NCBI GenBank assembly: GCA_965224245.1
Contig: OZ245046.1
Location: 3,456,001 to 3,520,000 of the forward strand
Source: Candidatus Eiseniibacteriota bacterium
GTDB taxonomy: Bacteria > Eisenbacteria > RBG-16-71-46 > CAZAMP01
Length of the DNA: 64,000 nt
Reading direction: 5' to 3'
The position numbers and the translations under genes were made by a program. Each line of letters opens with the position of its first letter. The stretch's first letter is position 1. Positions 1 to 14,690 of this stretch are shown piece by piece. The notes below the pieces were generated by a model. It made no database searches and was not told the origin of the DNA. It saw only the letters and a program-made list of their open reading frames with translations.

Positions 1-713
1 CGCGTGAAGTGGGTGTGCTCGGCGACGGGGTCGACGTATCCATCGCGCCAGGCGGTGAAGATGGCCGCCAGCGTCTCGCGCGGAACGCGGAGCGTATCGG
101 CCACCACGTAGTCGATCGTGATGTCGGTGATCCCCAGATCCACGAGGATCGCGTGCGTGTGCCGACCCACGAAGAGGTCGGTTCCGGTCGCGGCCCCGAA
201 CTGAACCGGCCCGTGGTGCCAGAAGTCCCTCGGATCGGGGGTTCCCCGCTCGAAGTGCAGCATCCCGTAGTCCTCGGGGATGAGGTGCAGCCGTCCTCCC
301 GGCCGCGTCACGCGGACGAGCTCGGCGATGGCGCGCTCGGGGTACGGAATGGAGTGCAGCACGTGACGGTTCACGGTCAGGTCGTACGTGTCGTCGGGCG
401 CGTCCAGCGCGTAGACGCTCTGGTTGCCAAAGCTGAGGCGCGGCGCGAGCGGCGCGTAGCGCGATCGGGCGAACGCGAGGCTCTCGTCGAGGATGTCGAC
501 GCCCAGCACGGTCGCGCGCGGGAACGTCTCGGCGAGCCGCGAGGAGATCTCTCCCGTGCCGCAGCCCACGTCGATCACGCGGATCTCGTCGGTCAGTCCG
601 TAGCGCCGGATGAGCTCGGACTCCTGCGGCCAGATCGCGCGCGCCTGCGCGTCGAGCGTCCGCACCATGGACTCGTCCGCCATCTGCCTGGCGTGGGGAT
701 TGAGATCGGTCAT
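1..713 (-). CDS. Class I SAM-dependent methyltransferase (3' end runs off the window)
   Basis: Not in the ORF track. Manual translation from ATG at 713: MTDLNPHARQMADESMVRTLDAQARAIWPQE...VIDVGCGTGEI...VLGVDI...YDLTVNRHVLHSIPYPERAIAELVRVTRPGG. Motif I (DxGCGxG) and the post-motif-III PGG are present. Confidence 0.9.
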   Translation of the reverse strand, partial: MTDLNPHARQMADESMVRTLDAQARAIWPQESELIRRYGLTDEIRVIDVGCGTGEISSRLAETFPRATVLGVDILDESLAFARSRYAPLAPRLSFGNQSVYALDAPDDTYDLTVNRHVLHSIPYPERAIAELVRVTRPGGRLHLIPEDYGMLHFERGTPDPRDFWHHGPVQFGAATGTDLFVGRHTHAILVDLGITDITIDYVVADTLRVPRETLAAIFTAWRDGYVDPVAEHTHFT

Positions 714-2691: not shown

Positions 2692-5421
2692 ATGTCGCAT
2701 TCCGCCGCCTGGCTGGCACGTTTCACACTCACGCTCGCTCTGGCCACGAGCGCCGCGGCCGCGCTCGCGAGCGAGCCCGTGGCCCTCGATCCCGCGCTGG
2801 CCCGGCGCCATCAGCTCGAGTCCGGTACCCGTCAGTCGATCACGATCCGGGTCGCCGACACGCCCGGTGCGGAGCCACGCGCGGCCGACGGCGCGATCGA
2901 CGTCACCGTCAGCCTCGCGGGGTCGCCGGTGGTCATCCACCTCGAGCCCCACGACGTCCGGGCACCCGGCTTCACGGTGCTCGCGGAGTCGGCCTCGGGT
3001 GCGCGACCGGTACCGGTGGCCCCGCCGCGCACGTACCGCGGCCACGTGCTCGGGCGGCCCGAGGTGCGCGCCGCCGCCACCGTCGACGGCGGCGAGCTCC
3101 GGGCGCGACTCACCGATGGCACCGAGACGTGGTGGCTGGAGCCGGTCGGAGACGGATCCACCGAGCACCTCGTGTATCGATCCGAGGAGGTCCTTCCCCT
3201 TCCCGGCGTGTGTGTGCTCCCCGACGGTGTCGCGTCCGCGCCGGCGGCGGGCCCGGATGCCGACCCGGACGCGATCGGCGGGGACCCCGGGTGCGGCAGC
3301 CTCTGCCAGATCGCGATCGACGTGGATCCCCAGTACGCGGGGATCTTCGACACCCTGGACGAGGTCGTGGCCGACATCGAGGGGCTCCTGAACGTCGTCG
3401 ACGCGATCTACGCCGACGATCTCGGCATCACCTACGAGATCACGACGATCCACATCCACGGGGCCGACGAGACACCGTACTCGACGAACGACCCGTACGC
3501 GCTCCTGGATCAGTTCGCCGCGCTCTGGAACACCGAGTACGCCGACGTCGTGCGCGACGTGGCGCACCTCTTCACGGGTCGCGAGCTGTCGGGCGCCGTG
3601 ATCGGGATCGCCCAGGTGGCGGCGATCTGCACCGACGAGGGCTACGGCATCTCGCAGTCGTTCTTCGGCGGCAACTACGCACAGCGGGTCACCGTCACCA
3701 CGCACGAGCTCGGACACAACTGGAGCGCCCTCCACTGCAACGGCGATGCCGACTGCCAGATCATGTGCGCGAGCGTCTCCGGCTGCACGAGCGAGAAGGA
3801 GCACTTCGGGCGCCGGTCGCTGAGCGCGATCGCCGCTCACCGGGCCACGCGGACGTGCCTGGACGACGGCGGCCCGGTGGCGCCCTCGTCGAGGGACGAC
3901 GACACGGTCACGCTCATCGGCGAGCCCGTCGACGTCGACGTGCTGGCGAACGACTTCAGCGTGACCTGCGCGGAGCTCACGATCACCGCGTTCGACGTGA
4001 CGACCGAGGCCGGCGGAACGGTCGCCCGTCACGCCGGTGGAGGCGAGGGCGGTCGCGACGTTCTCACCTACGTGCCGCCGGCGGGCTATGAGGGGACCGA
4101 CAGGTTCGGCTACGTCATCGTCGACGACCAGGCCCTGGAGGCGACCGCCCGCGTGCGCGTGGACGTGCTCGAGTTCCGGGATCCCGACGCGGCGACGGAG
4201 CGTGCGCCAGGTCTGGCCGCCACGTACTACGCCTATCCGCGCCCGTTCTCCGCGCCGGACCTCGACGCGTTCACGGCCTACGCGTCCGACGCGCTGCCCG
4301 AGCTGTTCTTCCGGCGGACCCTCCGCGAGGTCGGGACCAGCGGACGGATGGACGAGGTGGGCGCCCGCATCGCGGGGACGATCGTCCTCGACGAGCCGGG
4401 GACCTACACGTGGTTCGTGACCGCCGACGACGGTGCCCGCGTGAGCGTGGATGGCGTGCCGATCGTGGAGAGCTCGTTCTCGGAGGCGTCCGGGAGCCTC
4501 GATCTCGAGGCCGGCGAGCACGCGCTCGTCGTCGAGTACTACGAGATCGACGCGGCCTCCGGCCTCAGCGTGGAGCTGGAGGGCCCCTCGCGTCCTCGCG
4601 CCGTCGTGGCCACCGATCTCACCGGCGGCGCGGACTTCGCGGTGAGCTACTACGCACTGCCCGACGCGGCCTGGCTGCCCGACTTCACGACCCTCGTCCC
4701 GCTCGCGTCGGAGACGGTCCCCTCGCTGTTCCGGGTCTCGCAGACCGGAGAGCTGGGCACCAGCGGACGCGCGGACCTCGTGGCCGCCCAGTACGTCGGG
4801 TTCCTGGAGGTGCCCGTCCGGGGTGTCTACCGCGTGTGGTTGGAGTCGGACGACGGCTCGGCGCTGTGGATACACGACCGCCGGATCGTCGTGAACGACG
4901 GTGGTCATCTGATGCGAGATCGCGGCGGCTGGATGGCCCTCGAAGCGGGCGCGCACCCGATCCGGGTGGACTACTTCCAGAAGCGTGACGCGCACGGGCT
5001 CATCGCCCGGATCGAAAGTGACGGGCTCGAGCGACAGGTGATCCCGGCCGACTGGCTGTCGCAGACCGACGTCGGCACGCCGATCCTGCCGCCGGGCGAC
5101 GGCTCCGATCCCTCGGGGGGCACCCCGAGCGCGCTCTCGGTCGGGCGGGTGACCCCGAACCCGTTCTCGTCGATCACGACCGTGGAGATCGCGGTCCCGG
5201 GCGACGGGCGAGCGGAGGAGGCCGTCCGGGCCGACGTCCACGACGCGGCGGGACGCCGGGTCGTGTCGCTGGCCGTTCGCCCTCCCGGAGCCGACGGAGT
5301 CACGACGGCGTCCTGGGATGGCCGGGACTCGGCGGGACATCCGGTCGCGCCCGGCGTCTACTTCCTGCGCGTTCGGTCCGGATCCCACCAGGTCGTGCGT
5401 CCGGTGCGGCTGACCCGATGA
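2692..5421 (+). CDS. Secreted reprolysin-like (M12) zinc metallopeptidase with Ig-like domain, two PA14 domains and a FlgD-Ig/T9SS-type C-terminal domain
   Basis: Signal peptide; HELGHNWSALH plus Met-turn CQIMC; VDVLAND...YVP...FGY (Big_9-like); two TADDG/ESDDGS PA14 motifs; C-terminal PNPFSS...WDGRD..G.PVAPGVYFLR. RBS GGAGG. Confidence 0.85.
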   Translation: MSHSAAWLARFTLTLALATSAAAALASEPVALDPALARRHQLESGTRQSITIRVADTPGAEPRAADGAIDVTVSLAGSPVVIHLEPHDVRAPGFTVLAESASGARPVPVAPPRTYRGHVLGRPEVRAAATVDGGELRARLTDGTETWWLEPVGDGSTEHLVYRSEEVLPLPGVCVLPDGVASAPAAGPDADPDAIGGDPGCGSLCQIAIDVDPQYAGIFDTLDEVVADIEGLLNVVDAIYADDLGITYEITTIHIHGADETPYSTNDPYALLDQFAALWNTEYADVVRDVAHLFTGRELSGAVIGIAQVAAICTDEGYGISQSFFGGNYAQRVTVTTHELGHNWSALHCNGDADCQIMCASVSGCTSEKEHFGRRSLSAIAAHRATRTCLDDGGPVAPSSRDDDTVTLIGEPVDVDVLANDFSVTCAELTITAFDVTTEAGGTVARHAGGGEGGRDVLTYVPPAGYEGTDRFGYVIVDDQALEATARVRVDVLEFRDPDAATERAPGLAATYYAYPRPFSAPDLDAFTAYASDALPELFFRRTLREVGTSGRMDEVGARIAGTIVLDEPGTYTWFVTADDGARVSVDGVPIVESSFSEASGSLDLEAGEHALVVEYYEIDAASGLSVELEGPSRPRAVVATDLTGGADFAVSYYALPDAAWLPDFTTLVPLASETVPSLFRVSQTGELGTSGRADLVAAQYVGFLEVPVRGVYRVWLESDDGSALWIHDRRIVVNDGGHLMRDRGGWMALEAGAHPIRVDYFQKRDAHGLIARIESDGLERQVIPADWLSQTDVGTPILPPGDGSDPSGGTPSALSVGRVTPNPFSSITTVEIAVPGDGRAEEAVRADVHDAAGRRVVSLAVRPPGADGVTTASWDGRDSAGHPVAPGVYFLRVRSGSHQVVRPVRLTR

Positions 5422-5436
5422 TCGGAGCCGCCCGCG

Positions 5437-8028
5437 TCACTCGATCCGCACGACCTTCGACGTTCTGACGAGGCCCGGGGCGCTCAGCCGGAAGAAGTAC
5501 ACGCCGGCCGTCACCGGGCGCCCGACCTCGTCCTGCCCGTCCCACGTGACCGTGCCGCCGCCCGCCGGGGCGAGTCCATCGAGCACCGTGGCGATCCGGC
5601 GTCCCACGACGTCGTGCACGGTGACCCGGATGGGTCGCGCGGACTCGAGCGTGAAGTCCACGCGGGAGGCCCGCGTGAACGGGTTCGGGACCGCCGGTCC
5701 GAGGCCGATGGTGACCGACGCCGTCGGCTCGGACACCCCGACGGTGGCGGCGCCCGTCCCGCGCACCAGTGACACCCCGCGGTCCAGGTCGTACGGCGGG
5801 TACCCGATGACGGCGGCCACGTCGCCGACCCCGTCGCCGGTGAAGTCGCCGAAGGCGAGATCGGTCGGACTGAAGCCGACGCCGTAGCGCACGTGCGGCT
5901 CGAACGTGCCGTCGCCCCGGTTGCGGTAGAACGAGAAGTCGTTCGACCCGAAGTTCAGGAGCATCGCGTCCACGTCGCCGTCCGCGTCGGCGTCCCCGAC
6001 GGTGAGGCTCCGGACGCCGCCGATCGTCGAGTACGACGCGACGTAGCGGGAATACGGCTCGAACGTCCCGTCACCGTGACCGATCAGGACGCACATCGAC
6101 TGCTGGGGATCGCCGGCCATGTTGCAGGTCAGGAGATCGGCGAACCCGTCACCGTTCAGGTCGGCGCCGACCACGTCCTTCGGCCCCCAGTCGGTGACGA
6201 AGCGGGTGAACGGCCCGAACGTGCCGTCGCCGTTCCCCATCGAGACCGCGATCGCGTCGGCCTCGGTCCAGACGAGGTCGCGGTTGCCGTCCCCGTCGAG
6301 GTCGACGCCCCGGACGATCTCGGCCGCGATGAACGTCGGGTGGACGTACGGCGCCATGAACGTCCCGTCGCCCGCGTTCTCGCAGATGTAGATGAAGTTG
6401 CTGTCCCCGCCCCCGGCGCAGCCGAGATAGTCGGTCAGGAACACGTCGAGATCGCCGTCGTTGTCCATGTCGAACGCCTCGATGCCGCCGGTCCCGCAGG
6501 TGCCAACGGGCCAGGTCACCGTCGGACCGAACGTGCCGTCGCCGAGGTTCGTCCGCGTGTGGAAGTCGTACGGCGGCGACGTCGGGGCGGTGGCCCACAG
6601 AAGATCGACCATCCCGTCCCCGTCCAGGTCGCGCAGCTTCACGTCCAGCGCGGCGCGCGGCGCGGGATAGATCTCGATCGGCGCCAGCGTGCCGTCGCCC
6701 TGATTGCGGAGCACGCCGATCACGCCGCTGGTGGAGTAGTAGCCGGACGTCGCGACGTCCAGATCGCCGTCACCGTCGACGTCCGCGGCGTCCATGTGCT
6801 CGTGAAACGCACCGGCCGGTGTGGACGGCGGCGACCGGAACGCCCCGTCGCCGGGGTTGGGATGCACGGTGATCTCGAGCGAGTTGCGGCTGACGATGAC
6901 CACGTCGGCGTGGGCGTCCCCGTCCACGTCGGCGGTGTCGATGGCCACCGGGGAGTCGCCGGCCGGGAGCTCGGTGCCCGGCAGGAAGCCCCCCGAGCCG
7001 TCGCCGCGGGCGAAGGTCCAGCTCCCGGTGTCGATGTGCACCGTCATCAGATCGACCCATCCGTCACCGGTGACGTCCGTGACCGCCATGTCGACCGGTC
7101 CGGCCAGGAAGTCCACGATCGGGACGAACGACACGGGCGCGAACGTGCCGTCGCCCGCGTTGGCGAACGTGGCCACCGCGTAGTCGTCGGTGTCGATCTG
7201 GGATCGCGTGCTTCCGTAGAAGATGTCCAGGTCGCCGTCGTTGTCGGAGTCGGCGAGCCGCACGCACGGGAACACGTCGTTCACGCCGAACCCGGCGTTC
7301 AGCGCGACCGGAGCTGCGAAGGCACCTCCGGTGTTCATCAGCACCGCCACCTGCGTGCCCTCGCACGCGGCGACCACGTCCGGACGGTCGTCGCCGTCGA
7401 GGTCTCCGGCGACGAGCTTGTAGGGCGCGGGCAGCGCGGGGAACACCCGAGGGGGTCCGAAGCCGCCGCTGCCGTCGTTCAGAAGCAGCACGACGGTGCT
7501 TCCGAGGCCGATGCGGCCGTAGCCGGCGACCGCGAGGTCGACGTGTCCGTCGCCGTCGAAGTCCGCCGGGGCGATCCCCACCGGACCCTCCACGGCCGCG
7601 TAGTCCTGGCGGGGAGCGAACGTCCCGTCGCCCTGGTTCAGCAGCACCGAGATCGACGTACCCAGCATCGAGCTCCCGGTGTTGGCGGCGACGATGTCGC
7701 CGAAGCCGTCGCCGTCAACGTCGGCCACCTGGACCTCGAAGGAGCTGCCCTGGATCGTGTAGTAGACCGCCTCGGCGTAGCGCCCGTTCTCGTTGATCAG
7801 CACGCTCACGATGCGGGGAAAGAACCAGTGCGAGGTGACGGCGTCCGGGTCTCCATCCCCGTCGAGATCGGCGACGGCGCCCGCGTACGGGAAGTGCGCG
7901 TCGCCGTAGAAGCCGGTGTCGAAGCCGTACCACGTGTCGAAGCCGGGCTCGAACGCGAGGACGGCCGGCGCCAGGATCAGCGCCGCCATCACAGCCGGGC
8001 CGACGGCCGTTCGGCTCATCGTGCTCAT
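5437..8028 (-). CDS. Secreted FG-GAP/VCBS repeat beta-propeller protein with FlgD-Ig/T9SS-type C-terminal domain
   Basis: Signal peptide MSTMSRTAVGPAVMAALILAPAVLA; about 14 DxDGDGxxD repeats with NxGDGTF; C-terminal PNPFT...WDGQD..G.PVTAGVYF. GGAGG RBS upstream of ATG 8028. Confidence 0.88.
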   Translation of the reverse strand: MSTMSRTAVGPAVMAALILAPAVLAFEPGFDTWYGFDTGFYGDAHFPYAGAVADLDGDGDPDAVTSHWFFPRIVSVLINENGRYAEAVYYTIQGSSFEVQVADVDGDGFGDIVAANTGSSMLGTSISVLLNQGDGTFAPRQDYAAVEGPVGIAPADFDGDGHVDLAVAGYGRIGLGSTVVLLLNDGSGGFGPPRVFPALPAPYKLVAGDLDGDDRPDVVAACEGTQVAVLMNTGGAFAAPVALNAGFGVNDVFPCVRLADSDNDGDLDIFYGSTRSQIDTDDYAVATFANAGDGTFAPVSFVPIVDFLAGPVDMAVTDVTGDGWVDLMTVHIDTGSWTFARGDGSGGFLPGTELPAGDSPVAIDTADVDGDAHADVVIVSRNSLEITVHPNPGDGAFRSPPSTPAGAFHEHMDAADVDGDGDLDVATSGYYSTSGVIGVLRNQGDGTLAPIEIYPAPRAALDVKLRDLDGDGMVDLLWATAPTSPPYDFHTRTNLGDGTFGPTVTWPVGTCGTGGIEAFDMDNDGDLDVFLTDYLGCAGGGDSNFIYICENAGDGTFMAPYVHPTFIAAEIVRGVDLDGDGNRDLVWTEADAIAVSMGNGDGTFGPFTRFVTDWGPKDVVGADLNGDGFADLLTCNMAGDPQQSMCVLIGHGDGTFEPYSRYVASYSTIGGVRSLTVGDADADGDVDAMLLNFGSNDFSFYRNRGDGTFEPHVRYGVGFSPTDLAFGDFTGDGVGDVAAVIGYPPYDLDRGVSLVRGTGAATVGVSEPTASVTIGLGPAVPNPFTRASRVDFTLESARPIRVTVHDVVGRRIATVLDGLAPAGGGTVTWDGQDEVGRPVTAGVYFFRLSAPGLVRTSKVVRIE

Positions 8029-8163
8029 GCAATCCTCCAGGTTGCGCGCCCGTCCGACGTCCCATCGGACGAGATGCCTCGTTCCATCCGCCGTGCCTCC
8101 CGGCTGGTCACACGGTGTTCTGCTCTCGATTCTCTCCACGTCGACTCGTTGCGCGGTCGACCC

Positions 8164-9609
8164 TCATCGGAGGGTCCCCTCGCCCACGAGCGTCGCCTCC
8201 CCGGCGCGGACCGTGACCTGCGTCGAGGGGAACTCCAGATCCAGCGTGGCGCGGGTCGTCCCGCCCAGCAGCTCGTTGTTTCCGAACCCGAGCGTGACGG
8301 TGCCGGCCAGACATCCGTCGAGAACCGGCAGGCCGGTCGGTCCCGCTCCGGCCGGATTGATCCCGATGCGGACGCTGGCGAGAAGGTCGGCGTCCCCGGC
8401 GGCGTGCGCGATCGCGCCACGGATCAGCTCGGCGCCGCTGTCCCCGCGCACGTCGGTGATGCGGCCGTCGCGCAGCTCGAGCGCGACGTTCCAGACGTGA
8501 CGGCCGCCCACCAGTCCGTAGTCGGCGACCCACGTGCCGCTCGCCCTCGGGGTCGCCGGGAGGATCGTCAACGAGCCGGCCGGAAGGACGTCGAAGCCGA
8601 AGCCCGACCCCAGGTCCTCGCGGGAGACGACGCCGTCGTTCACGTGCGCCGACGCGAGGTCCACCGTCACCGTCAGGTCGGTGCCACGCGTGCAGCCGAG
8701 CGACAGTGACGCGCCGTCGCGGATCCGAGATCGAACCGACTGCGCGCGTTCGGCGAGCCGCTCGTAGTCGGTGTGTACGCACCGCCAGTACAGATCGATC
8801 GCCGCCTCGGGCGTGACGTTTCCGGTCTCGAAGTGCCCGCGGTGCGGCAGGTCGACCTCGAGGTAGCGTGCGCCCCGCTCCCGGATTCGTTGCTGCCAGC
8901 CCGAGACCGCGTCCAGCACGATCGGAAGCTTCTCGCGCTGCGCCCCGCTGGGCGGCGCGCCCTGCGGCATGTGGGTGCTGATGAAGAGCACCGCGTCCAG
9001 GGTCCCGTCCAGATGCGCGTCCAGGAACGGGAGCCGCGCCAGCGACGCGGCATCGTGACGATCGAGGGTCCGGAGAACGACGTTGCGCGACCACAGCTTC
9101 GGTCGCGGTCGCGCTCCGAGTGCCTCGATCTCGACGACGCACGCCTCGGCGAGCTCGAGCCCCATGGGGCCGAACATCACGAGGACGGTCTCGTCCTCGT
9201 GCACGCCGAGACACGTCGCCACGACGGTGCGCGCGACCTCTCCCAGGTCGATGTCGAGGATCTCCTTGCGACGCCAGTCCAGGAACGCCGCCTCGGCCGA
9301 CTGCCGGAGCGCGGCCGACGTGCTGCCGTCACCACAGGCCAGTGCCGGATCCATCAGGAAGTTGCGCGCCACCGCGCGGTAGTAGCGCTCCTCGCGACGC
9401 CGCTTGCGGCCCGTTCCCACGACCTCGAGGAGACCGTGCTCGAGAAGCTGCCGGACGTGGTAGTGAGCGCGGTTGGCGGGCATCTCGAGCTTCCTGGCGA
9501 CCCCGGTGACGGTCAGGGGCTCGCGCGTCAGGAGGTTCAGCATTCGAAGCCGCTCCTCGCGCGCGATCGCCCAGATCTGCGACATGCGCAGGAGCTCGAA
9601 GTCCTTCAT
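8164..9609 (-). CDS. ArsR/HTH_20 winged-helix regulator fused to an M29 (thermophilic aminopeptidase)-like domain, probably catalytically inactive
   Basis: N-terminal RLRMLNLLTREPLTVTGVARKLEMPANRAHYHVRQLLEHGLLEVV...ERYYRA. C-terminal region follows the M29 layout (LARTVVATCLGVHEDETVLV; GTDLTV; LPAG; IGINP; GTVTLGFGNN..GG). Start MKDFELL at 9609. Confidence 0.8.
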   Translation of the reverse strand: MKDFELLRMSQIWAIAREERLRMLNLLTREPLTVTGVARKLEMPANRAHYHVRQLLEHGLLEVVGTGRKRRREERYYRAVARNFLMDPALACGDGSTSAALRQSAEAAFLDWRRKEILDIDLGEVARTVVATCLGVHEDETVLVMFGPMGLELAEACVVEIEALGARPRPKLWSRNVVLRTLDRHDAASLARLPFLDAHLDGTLDAVLFISTHMPQGAPPSGAQREKLPIVLDAVSGWQQRIRERGARYLEVDLPHRGHFETGNVTPEAAIDLYWRCVHTDYERLAERAQSVRSRIRDGASLSLGCTRGTDLTVTVDLASAHVNDGVVSREDLGSGFGFDVLPAGSLTILPATPRASGTWVADYGLVGGRHVWNVALELRDGRITDVRGDSGAELIRGAIAHAAGDADLLASVRIGINPAGAGPTGLPVLDGCLAGTVTLGFGNNELLGGTTRATLDLEFPSTQVTVRAGEATLVGEGTLR

Positions 9610-9646
9610 GGCGATCGTCTCTTCCGTCCCGCCCGGCGGTCCGGTA

Positions 9647-9666
9647 TATGCAATTTTTCTTGCATA
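9647..9666. promoter_or_regulatory. Palindromic operator TATGCAA-N6-TTGCATA
   Basis: Perfect 7-6-7 inverted repeat in an AT-rich patch, 37 bp upstream of the HTH-M29 start codon. Confidence 0.7.
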
Positions 9667-10832
9667 ACTCCTCAAAACAAAGACGGCGGCGGACGGCCCG
9701 CCTCCGAGGGTCCGATCATCGGGCCTGCGCGCCCCGCGCGCAATCGCGGGTTCCCCGAACCGGCCGCGCGGGCGGGCCACCTCTCGTTCGAGAGTGGGTC
9801 CCCGGACCGCGCTGATACCCGGAGCCGGGCATTTTCCTCGGACCGCGCGCGCCCCGACGGGGCCGGCTCGGTCAGGTGCTCCAGCTCTGCAGGAGCTCCA
9901 TGTAGTTCCCGCGCTCGTACGCGCCCGGATCCGGGGAGCGGCTCAGGTTCATGCTCCCCTGCATCTGCCGCAGCGACTCGTACTCGTGCGCCTCGAGCCA
10001 CGTCGTGAGCTCGGACTTGACCGCGCTCAGGTGATCGGGCCCCCGACGCAGCAACGACGACACCATCTGGACCGCGTGCGCCCCGCACATGATCGACTTG
10101 ACGACGTCGGCGCTGGAGTGGACGCCCCCGGTGATCGCCAGTGAGAGCTCGGTCTGCTCCGAGAGAATGGCCAGCCAGCGAAGTCGCAGGAGCAGCTCGT
10201 CGGACGTGCTGAGTCGTAGCGATCGCGTGACCGTCAGCTCCTCGATGTCGAGGTCGGGCTGGTAGAAGCGATTGAAGACGACGAGCCCCGCGGCGCCGGC
10301 GCGGAACAGCTCCCGCGAGAGGTGCGGCAGCGCGGTGAAGAACGGCGAGATCTTCACCGCGATGGGAATGTGAATCTGCGCGCTCGTCGCGTGCACCATC
10401 TGCACCAGCCGGCGCTCGATGCTCGCGGCGTCCTCGGCGGGATCGGTGGCCAGGAAGTACACGTTCAGCTCGAGCGCGTCGGCTCCGGCCTCGGCGAGCT
10501 GCTTGGCGAAGCGCAGCCATCCCCCCATGCTGGTGCCGTTGAGCGAGGCGATCACCGGGACGTCCACCGCGTCCTTCACCCGGCGCAGGTGCGCGAGGTA
10601 CTCGTCGATGCCCATCGCGAACGTGGGCGTGGACGGGAAGAAGCTCATCGCCTCGGCGAAACCCTCGCTGTGGCTGTCGAGGTGGGCGAGCGCGCCGAGC
10701 TGGTCGGCCACGATCTGCTCCTCGAACAGCGACCGCAACACGATGGCGCCCGCGCCGGCGTCCTCGAGCGCCCGCACCGAGTCCAGCTCGTCGGCCAGCG
10801 GGGACGCGCCGGGCATCAGCGGGTTTTCGAGC

Positions 10833-14507
<3,675 letters not shown>

Positions 14508-14690
14508 GACGATGTCCCAGGCGAGAGGTTCGGGGTCGAGGGCGGGCACCTCGGAGGGCTGTATGTTGGAGGTCCGTGTCCCAAGGGGGGCTCGGATCCG
14601 AGATGCCCGCAGCGTTCGCACCGGACAAGACTCGGTGATCGAGTCCCCCGGAACCATAAGGGGTTTCCGTAGCGGAAGTTGCGAGAACCG

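Follow-up and report, generated by a model that had tools for sequence, protein, structure and literature searches.

The stretch of DNA considered here (the window) comprises 64,000 nucleotides of contig OZ245046.1, positions 3,456,001 to 3,520,000 of the forward strand, from the assembly GCA_965224245.1 of Candidatus Eiseniibacteriota bacterium. Between positions 8164 and 9609 it carries a gene whose product, P0001, unites a predicted DNA-binding helix-turn-helix (HTH) and a domain with the fold of the M29 aminopeptidases in one polypeptide, with a candidate operator palindrome at its own upstream region. The gene and the parts of its product are the following.

8164..9609, minus strand: HTH-M29-like regulator gene (P0001, 481 amino acids), an open reading frame with its ATG at 9609 and its stop codon at 8164-8166.
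9418..9558, minus strand: ArsR-type winged helix-turn-helix, residues 18-64, from Pfam HTH_20 and HTH_5.
9259..9327, minus strand: long linker helix, residues 95-117, with a conserved WRR motif, from DSSP on the AlphaFold2 model.
8167..9255, minus strand: domain of residues 119-481 with the complete M29-aminopeptidase fold but lacking the metal ligands, from hhalign and Foldseek.
8233..8319, minus strand: former active-site segment, residues 431-459 (D431 kept, G432, T439, E446, D457, E459), from alignments.

An in-frame GTG at 9780 offers an alternative start that would lengthen P0001 by 57 residues. The ATG at 9609 is the likely start, because the homologues of P0001 open at an MKDFE motif and because the extension from the GTG crosses the AT-rich stretch of the promoter and palindrome. 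The coordinates 8164..9609 of a preliminary description of this DNA, which was made from the sequence alone, have been retained with the homologue starts at MKDFE as their support.

The N-terminal part of P0001 is recognizable as an ArsR-type winged helix. Residues 18-64 match Pfam HTH_20 (E 1.2e-10, 41.6 bits against a cut-off of 27) and HTH_5 is also over its cut-off (23.7 against 22 bits); the NCBIfam ArsR/SmtB metalloregulator model NF033788, at 28.2 bits against a cut-off of 55, is not reached. When P0001 was compared with solved chains by phmmer, the nearest were the archaeal ArsR-like PH1932 (1uly, E 0.0019) and Phr (E 0.0069), and PepS, at E 0.41 in the same search, lay below significance. 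An AlphaFold2 model of P0001 (predicted local distance difference test, pLDDT, 89.6; predicted TM-score, pTM, 0.78) was built on a family alignment, A1, whose 32 rows come from a word-indexed search that yielded 35 clusters including P0001; the shorter or partial P0010 (459 amino acids), P0032 (309 amino acids) and P0033 (358 amino acids) were excluded. By Foldseek, the N-terminal part of this model matches PH1932, SmtB, CzrA, NolR and Phr. The motif NRAHYH is near-invariant in the recognition helix of the family, and Y50 and H51, as well as R113 in the linker helix, are invariant in A1.

The remainder of the protein has the M29 fold. Pfam Peptidase_M29 scores 35.2 bits on P0001 against a cut-off of 27, its best stretch being residues 290-405 (profile positions 193-308 of 406); in a six-frame search of the whole genome with this family the gene scores 23.7 bits, under the cut-off. 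Comparison of A1 by hhalign with A3, an alignment of 26 stand-alone M29 proteins of about 365 amino acids with intact ligands, gives probability 100 and E 7.9e-53 for an alignment of 358 columns that takes in residues 119-481 and is ungapped through the catalytic half. The members of A3 were taken from an exhaustive HMMER search, which found 1854 proteins at E ≤ 0.001 and 36 at E ≤ 1e-30 and of which the best 150 were listed. In Foldseek the model is matched by PepS 4icr (E 8.7e-19), AmpS 1zjc (1.6e-17) and AmpT 2ayi (4.8e-16), with PepS 4ics and 4icq between 8.7e-19 and 4.8e-16; the dioxygenase NicX (7cn3) is matched at E 2.4e-17, and CgnE and CgnB more weakly, at E about 1e-6. The two-domain M29 fold is present at full length, and the architecture put forward in the preliminary description, a winged HTH joined to a full-length M29 fold, is borne out by the HTH_20 match, the hhalign comparison and the Foldseek matches to PepS, AmpS and AmpT.

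A striking feature of this domain is the absence of the metal site. The metal ligands of AmpS are Glu253, the bridging Glu319, His348, His381 and Asp383, with Tyr355 nearby (PMC4661694). The corresponding residues of P0001 are S346, S412, T439, D457 and E459, with E446 in place of the tyrosine. Three routes agreed on this mapping and hence on the loss at all five positions, namely a MAFFT alignment with the genome's own true M29 enzyme, the A3 profile hidden Markov model and hhalign, so that the ligands do not prove intact on proper alignment, an outcome that the preliminary description had named as fatal to it. Its claim that all six ligand positions are substituted stands for the five metal ligands and Tyr355; in the 'DE' motif, by contrast, the Asp is kept (D431, in 47 of 47 members of the close clade) and only the Glu is lost, replaced by G432. 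Its further claim that the flanking scaffold is kept agrees with the LPxG, LNP, GxN and GG motifs and the glycines that are common to P0001 and the M29 enzymes. Judging from these alignments, the metal site of P0001 is lost and the protein is not a canonical M29 peptidase; since the defining catalytic feature of M29 fails, it should not be filed as an aminopeptidase. The residues D431, E446 and D/N457 may form a residual or relocated cation site. The source genome also encodes one ordinary M29 enzyme, which scores 508 bits and has EEDEHYHD intact.

A NicX-like dioxygenase function was considered for P0001 and rejected. The NicX site consists of His, His and Asp, and the matching positions of P0001 read Thr, Asp and Glu.

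The loss of ligands extends to the relatives of P0001. The ligand positions were mapped in 151 relatives, namely every protein of at least 340 amino acids among 180 collected, together with three from the source genome; shorter fragments were excluded. Among the 75 that bear an HTH, 53 keep no ligand, 16 keep one, two keep two, three keep three, one keeps four and none keeps five. In the 76 that lack an HTH, all five ligands are present in 29, three in one, a single one in 31 and none in 15. The check for systematic loss proposed in the preliminary description thus gives 0 of 75 fused relatives with all five ligands against 29 of 76 without the HTH. The fused relatives P0058, P0049, P0059 and P0079, which are distant, retain three or four of the five.

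Within the close clade, represented by 47 full-length members, the former ligand positions have diverged to different extents. The first Glu position is occupied by S, A, T, F, Y, L and others, and by E in none of the 47; the bridging Glu position varies, E occurring in 5 of 47. The His348 position is Thr in 37 members and His in none, 16 members have D and another 16 have N at the His381 position, and the Asp383 position is almost random. E446 is found in 42 of the 47. Across the whole protein, conservation in A1 over windows of 15 residues peaks at 436-450, the old His348/Tyr355 loop, where the mean top-residue frequency is 0.83, above that of the recognition helix window 46-60 (0.75). The pocket region is under strong constraint even though the metal site is gone.

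The phylogenetic distribution of the fused gene is broad but uneven. Three HTH-M29-like genes are found in the source genome, the P0001 gene and two paralogues. A survey of the phylum found a match at E ≤ 1e-20 in 15 of 201 genomes searched. The matches cluster in a single family (9 of 12), and a genome may hold as many as four copies. The close homologues with a named source are Candidatus Eisenbacteria metagenome-assembled genomes, and more distant fused forms occur in Zhaonella formicivorans, Natranaerobius thermophilus, Clostridium sp., Cloacimonadota and Aegiribacteria. These distant forms are labeled 'aminopeptidase' or 'ArsR family regulator' in databases, and the former label is probably wrong for fused HTH-M29 genes. 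On a FastTree phylogeny of 158 M29 domains the HTH label changes 5 times, compared with a mean of 52.8 when labels were shuffled. Three of the 5 changes are rows of 358-370 amino acids inside fused clades, whose gene calls may have been truncated. From this tree, which has weak support and long branches, no more than one or two fusion events would be claimed. An artifact of assembly or annotation is ruled out as the origin of the fusion, which the preliminary description had listed as a possible refutation: the fused form is a conserved gene in several phyla, found in 75 protein clusters and on long contigs.

P0001 is predicted to be a homodimer. Prediction of a two-copy complex gave a score of 0.80 against 0.00 for the best control; the mark used is attained by 20 of 30 proteins whose structures are same-chain pairs and by 1 of 23 whose structures are single chains, counts that are only a rough guide here since a custom alignment was supplied. 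Contacts coincide between runs to at least 98%, and the partner pLDDT is at least 86. The predicted interface is formed by the HTH N-terminus (4-28), the linker helix (82-116) and the N-terminal M29-like half (141-203), which includes a conserved WSRN motif whose conservation is explained by this placement. M29 enzymes dimerize through their N-terminal portions (PMC10070186). The dimer score may therefore reflect likeness to M29 structures, these enzymes having been solved as dimers.

A candidate operator for this predicted dimer lies just upstream of the gene, and a probable target lies just downstream of it. The features of the immediate surroundings are the following.

9647..9666, no strand: perfect palindrome TATGCAA-N6-TTGCATA, candidate operator, ending 38 nucleotides upstream of the P0001 ATG.
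5437..8139, minus strand: gene for a secreted beta-propeller protein of the FG-GAP type with FlgD_ig at its C-terminus (FG-GAP_3 E 2.3e-74, FlgD_ig E 3.1e-07), downstream of P0001 on the same strand.
9675..9702, minus strand: terminator-like hairpin with a T-run that follows the DHO_dh-like gene upstream (1 site, against an expectation of 1.1 from shuffled sequence; weak on its own).

The 18-base core of the palindrome has a single match in the window, where 0.10 would be expected by chance with up to 2 mismatches allowed. In the whole 6.94-Mb source genome (G000), the exact sequence ATGCAA-N6-TTGCAT occurs once, before the P0001 gene. Of the other genomes compared (G050, G099, G144, G102, G053 and G182), three carry the same palindrome upstream of orthologues: it is exact in G050 (contig C5) and G099 (C18) and has one mismatch in G144 (C42), where it lies 87 nucleotides upstream. 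All 6 exact sites in G000 (1), G050 (2) and G099 (3) adjoin a gene of the family or precede a signal-peptide FlgD_ig propeller gene. Both exact copies in the G050 genome flank the regulator orthologue; one lies in the 307-nucleotide divergent spacer between the orthologue and a Reg_prop/FlgD_ig gene, the other about 40 nucleotides before the start of a convergent FlgD_ig gene, and both of these FlgD_ig genes begin with signal peptides. G099 shows the same flanking pair, and its third exact copy precedes a Reg_prop/FlgD_ig gene on a different contig. Elsewhere, matches with one mismatch are about as frequent as those of a reversed-pattern control.

A second subclade has a motif of its own, TTTCAG-N6-TTGAAA, in the same 6-6-6 layout. 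Exact copies lie 44-55 nucleotides upstream of a family gene in G102, G053, G099 (C6) and G182, and a further exact copy precedes a signal-peptide gene in G099 (C18). A perfect variant, TTTTCAGG-ATTT-CCTGAAAA, heads a three-gene run that ends in the source genome's own paralogue.

The FG-GAP/FlgD_ig gene at 5437..8139 is a probable regulated target of P0001. Its translation likely begins at an ATG near 8028, which immediately precedes a stretch resembling a signal peptide, and a terminator scan found no terminator-like site between it and the P0001 gene. On the other side, the hairpin at 9675..9702 implies that the P0001 gene has its own promoter; a sigma-70 promoter scan of 5300-10000 found no match, other promoter types being outside its scope. 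Beta-propeller proteins (FG-GAP, Reg_prop, LVIVD or BNR-like) with a C-terminal FlgD_ig domain adjoin the family gene at about 15 of 18 loci.

Information on the possible ligand comes from more distant fused genes and from other proteins with the fold. A set of 401 Bacillota genomes contains 8 full-length fused genes, in 7 genomes. Half of the 8 directly precede, on their own strand, a complete Opp-type oligopeptide ATP-binding cassette (ABC) operon, whose products are SBP_bac_5, a pair of permeases of which one has OppC_N, and two oligo_HPY ATPases. Two of these Opp-linked forms keep the ligands of the first metal site (E, E, H) and two keep one or two ligands; the second site is lost in all four. 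The remaining 4 genes are MFS-linked, and a search for inverted repeats common to the surroundings of the Opp-linked and MFS-linked genes turned up nothing beyond unrelated hairpins located in spacers rich in AT. CgnB and CgnE, of crocagin biosynthesis, are M29-derived peptide-binding proteins, and the metal site of CgnE is lost (PMC10070186). Their example shows that the M29 fold can serve as a non-cleaving peptide binder, with the metal site dispensable there. Because of the Opp linkage in Bacillota and of CgnB/CgnE, a peptide or amino acid would be the best single guess for the ligand of P0001, albeit one that we hold at well below even confidence.

On balance, these observations favor a reading of P0001 as a ligand-sensing, locally acting, homodimeric one-component regulator with a dead M29 domain as its sensor. 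The loss of the metal site, the conservation of the fusion and a role as a regulator are well supported; a role as a sensor has indirect support from the high conservation of the old active-site loop, the Opp linkage in Bacillota and the precedent of CgnB/CgnE. In the predicted complex, two ArsR-type winged helices would be held by the long linker helix and the N-terminal half of the M29-like domain. Such a dimer could bind the unique 20-bp palindrome just before its own start codon and could thereby control its own transcription and that of the adjacent secreted propeller gene. The conserved pocket, in the C-terminal half of the domain that once held the active site, would be the ligand site, and its occupancy would shift the geometry of the two helices and hence the affinity for DNA. 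The ligand would most likely be peptide-like or amino-acid-like, held by the carboxylates D431, E446 and D457 at the old metal places; this is the least certain step. More tentatively, and with somewhat less than an even chance of being right, the family as a whole may be an undescribed and widespread class of one-component regulators that use a decayed M29 domain as a sensor reading the N-terminal ends of peptides, controlling peptide import in Bacillota and, in this phylum, small local regulons of secreted beta-propeller proteins, each with a near-unique palindrome of 18-20 bp.

Several observations weigh against these proposals. The recognition helix, NRAHYH, is nearly identical in both subclades despite their different upstream motifs, so the helix alone fails to explain motif specificity. 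Some 135 nucleotides separate the P0001 gene from the likely start of the FG-GAP gene, which makes co-transcription of the two uncertain. Proteins with FlgD_ig are very abundant in the source genome (at least 150 scored of 451 candidates); for this reason, and because the loci are kin rather than independent, adjacency to such genes is weak evidence. Among the Bacillota genes, the other 4 of the 8 adjoin an MFS_1 transporter rather than peptide transporters. The targets in this phylum are propeller proteins to which no function is assigned, and a peptide ligand does not follow from this local context. Lastly, P0001 keeps the carboxylates D457 and E459 at second-metal positions, in addition to D431 and E446, and a cation site is therefore conceivable.

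The last three of these points bear on an alternative in which P0001 is a ligand-sensing regulator whose ligand is neither a peptide nor an amino acid and might be a metal ion at D431/E446/D457, a sugar, a cell-wall fragment or another metabolite linked to the propellers. This accords with local targets of the FG-GAP, Reg_prop, LVIVD and BNR types in place of peptide transporters, with the pairing of half the Bacillota relatives with MFS transporters and with the three carboxylate or amide side chains that persist round the old metal site; NicX, a 2,5-dihydroxypyridine dioxygenase with a strong Foldseek match to P0001, exemplifies the ability of the fold to take non-peptide ligands. The ancestral ligands of the M29 fold are, however, the N-termini of peptides, and the Opp linkage of the remaining Bacillota relatives and the precedent of the crocagin proteins (PMC10070186) point the same way; nor does P0001 reach the metalloregulator model. 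We regard a non-peptide ligand as rather unlikely. That the M29-like domain binds no ligand and is a mere dimerization scaffold for the HTH, with control exerted through the level of the protein or through a partner, is less likely again. The participation of the N-terminal M29-like half and its WSRN motif in the predicted interface, the dimerization of M29 enzymes noted above and the existence of stand-alone HTH proteins of about 190 amino acids with the same N-terminal module would all suit a scaffold. Yet the strongest conservation is in the loop 436-450, outside that interface, and a C-terminal half of 190 residues, needless for a simple dimerizer, is full length in 47 of 47 clade members.

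Least probable of all, and in our view very improbable, is a trigger enzyme in which a relocated or mononuclear catalytic site couples substrate turnover to DNA binding. It could draw on the invariance of D431, the prevalence of E446, the Asp or Asn found at the His381 position in 32 of 47 members and the distant fused proteins (P0058, P0049, P0059 and P0079) in which most ligands survive. Against it, there is free variation in the clade at three of the five ligand positions and His348 is replaced by Thr; in addition, the activity of Lmo1603 is almost abolished by a single substitution at any of the six active-site residues (PMC4661694).

Additional observations were made on genes and proteins around these subjects. 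A separate group of M29-like proteins without an HTH, about 350-430 amino acids long (P0081, P0086, P0090, P0098, P0103, P0106 and about 25 others), keeps in nearly all cases the first Glu alone, and its 'DE' Glu position is mostly aromatic, usually Trp; it looks like another non-catalytic branch of the fold. Three members of the group are longer: P0063 and P0155, both fused to tetratricopeptide repeats (TPR), and P0161 (757 amino acids, no TPR). Outside the window, positions 2438339-2438941 (plus strand) of contig C1 of the source genome give a weak match to the family profile (E 1.5e-22, profile positions 283-488) in a frame of 321 amino acids, which may be a stand-alone or truncated M29-like C-domain. 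The module of HTH and long helix also occurs alone, mostly in proteins of about 190 amino acids, in Peptostreptococcaceae, other Bacillota and Chloroflexota; 72 such loci (L062-L133) have HTH-only open frames of about 140-375 amino acids, and none of the 72 matches the M29 profile A3. In the Bacillota genome G512, locus L164 encodes at 4018-6816 (plus strand) a 933-residue protein that joins the chemoreceptor signaling domain MCPsignal and the peptide-binding domain SBP_bac_5, two genes from an MFS-linked HTH-M29 gene.

Within the window, positions 2692-5421 (plus strand) encode a secreted protein of 909 amino acids in which a reprolysin-like (M12B) zinc protease domain is combined with a bacterial Ig domain, a pair of PA14 stretches and FlgD_ig at the C-terminus. 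This gene is convergent with the FG-GAP gene, and its position two genes from a possible peptide sensor is suggestive. On the other side of the P0001 gene, just upstream and beyond the terminator-like hairpin, a DHO_dh-like gene at 9872-10951 (minus strand; Pfam E 5.3e-16) overlaps the end of a 1274-residue open reading frame at 10833-14657 (minus strand), which, by eye, we take to be pyruvate:ferredoxin oxidoreductase. The FlgD_ig C-terminal domains of the source genome are mostly carried on proteins of 500-1500 amino acids, and these tails probably act as a secretion or sorting tag in the phylum; the CHU_C and Por_Secre_tail models match some of the same tails in related genomes.

Regulators derived from retired enzymes are a recurring bacterial route to metabolite sensing. 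If the proposal for the family is correct, its living members trace the path from enzyme to sensor, from stand-alone enzymes with five ligands through Opp-linked Bacillota forms with the first site to ligand-free forms like those of Eisenbacteria. The family spans several phyla, including the cultured Bacillota Natranaerobius thermophilus and Zhaonella formicivorans, and the Opp linkage makes it a testable candidate for a cytoplasmic peptide sensor. The near-unique palindromes define a predicted set of regulator, operator and target, and offer a rare handle on the regulation of the expanded secreted FlgD_ig repertoire of an uncultured phylum. The preliminary description knew of no characterization of this architecture; consistent with that, full-text searches of the openly available literature found no paper on it, and to our knowledge no regulator with an M29 fold has been described.

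Comparison with known systems places P0001 between several of them. With the M29 aminopeptidases (AmpS 1zjc, PepS 4icq/4icr/4ics, AmpT 2ayi and Lmo1603) it has in common the fold of the whole domain, the scaffold motifs and, by prediction, a dimer formed via the N-terminal half; it differs in retaining none of the five metal ligands, in the change of Tyr to Glu and in the added winged HTH and linker helix. The ArsR/SmtB-type regulators with a C-terminal extension (PH1932 1uly/2cwe and Phr 2p4w) resemble it in both the sequence and the fold of the winged HTH, whereas the predicted sensor of P0001 is an enzyme-derived domain of 360 residues and not an alpha3/alpha5 metal site. MocR, GabR and PdxR are regulators with an aminotransferase fold, Bacillus subtilis PurR has a phosphoribosyltransferase fold and Escherichia coli PepA is a DNA-binding M17 aminopeptidase. 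These follow the same logic as that proposed for P0001, a DNA-binding part together with a fold from an enzyme that recognizes a metabolite, but their enzyme folds are unrelated to that of P0001 (GabR, PdxR and PurR are weak Foldseek matches to its model), and PepA, which retains its catalytic site, lacks a separate HTH. CgnB and CgnE (6zsv, 6zsu) are M29-derived, as P0001 is, and bind a peptide instead of cleaving it; they are monomers without the N-terminal dimerization part, have no extra domain and act in the biosynthesis of a peptide that is made on ribosomes and modified after translation (RiPP; PMC10070186). P0001, in contrast, has the N-terminal half and a fused HTH, it neighbors a propeller protein, a DHO_dh-like gene and an open reading frame of great length in place of a RiPP cluster, and its structural likeness to these two proteins is much weaker than to the M29 aminopeptidases (TM-score 0.36 by query, 0.52 by target).

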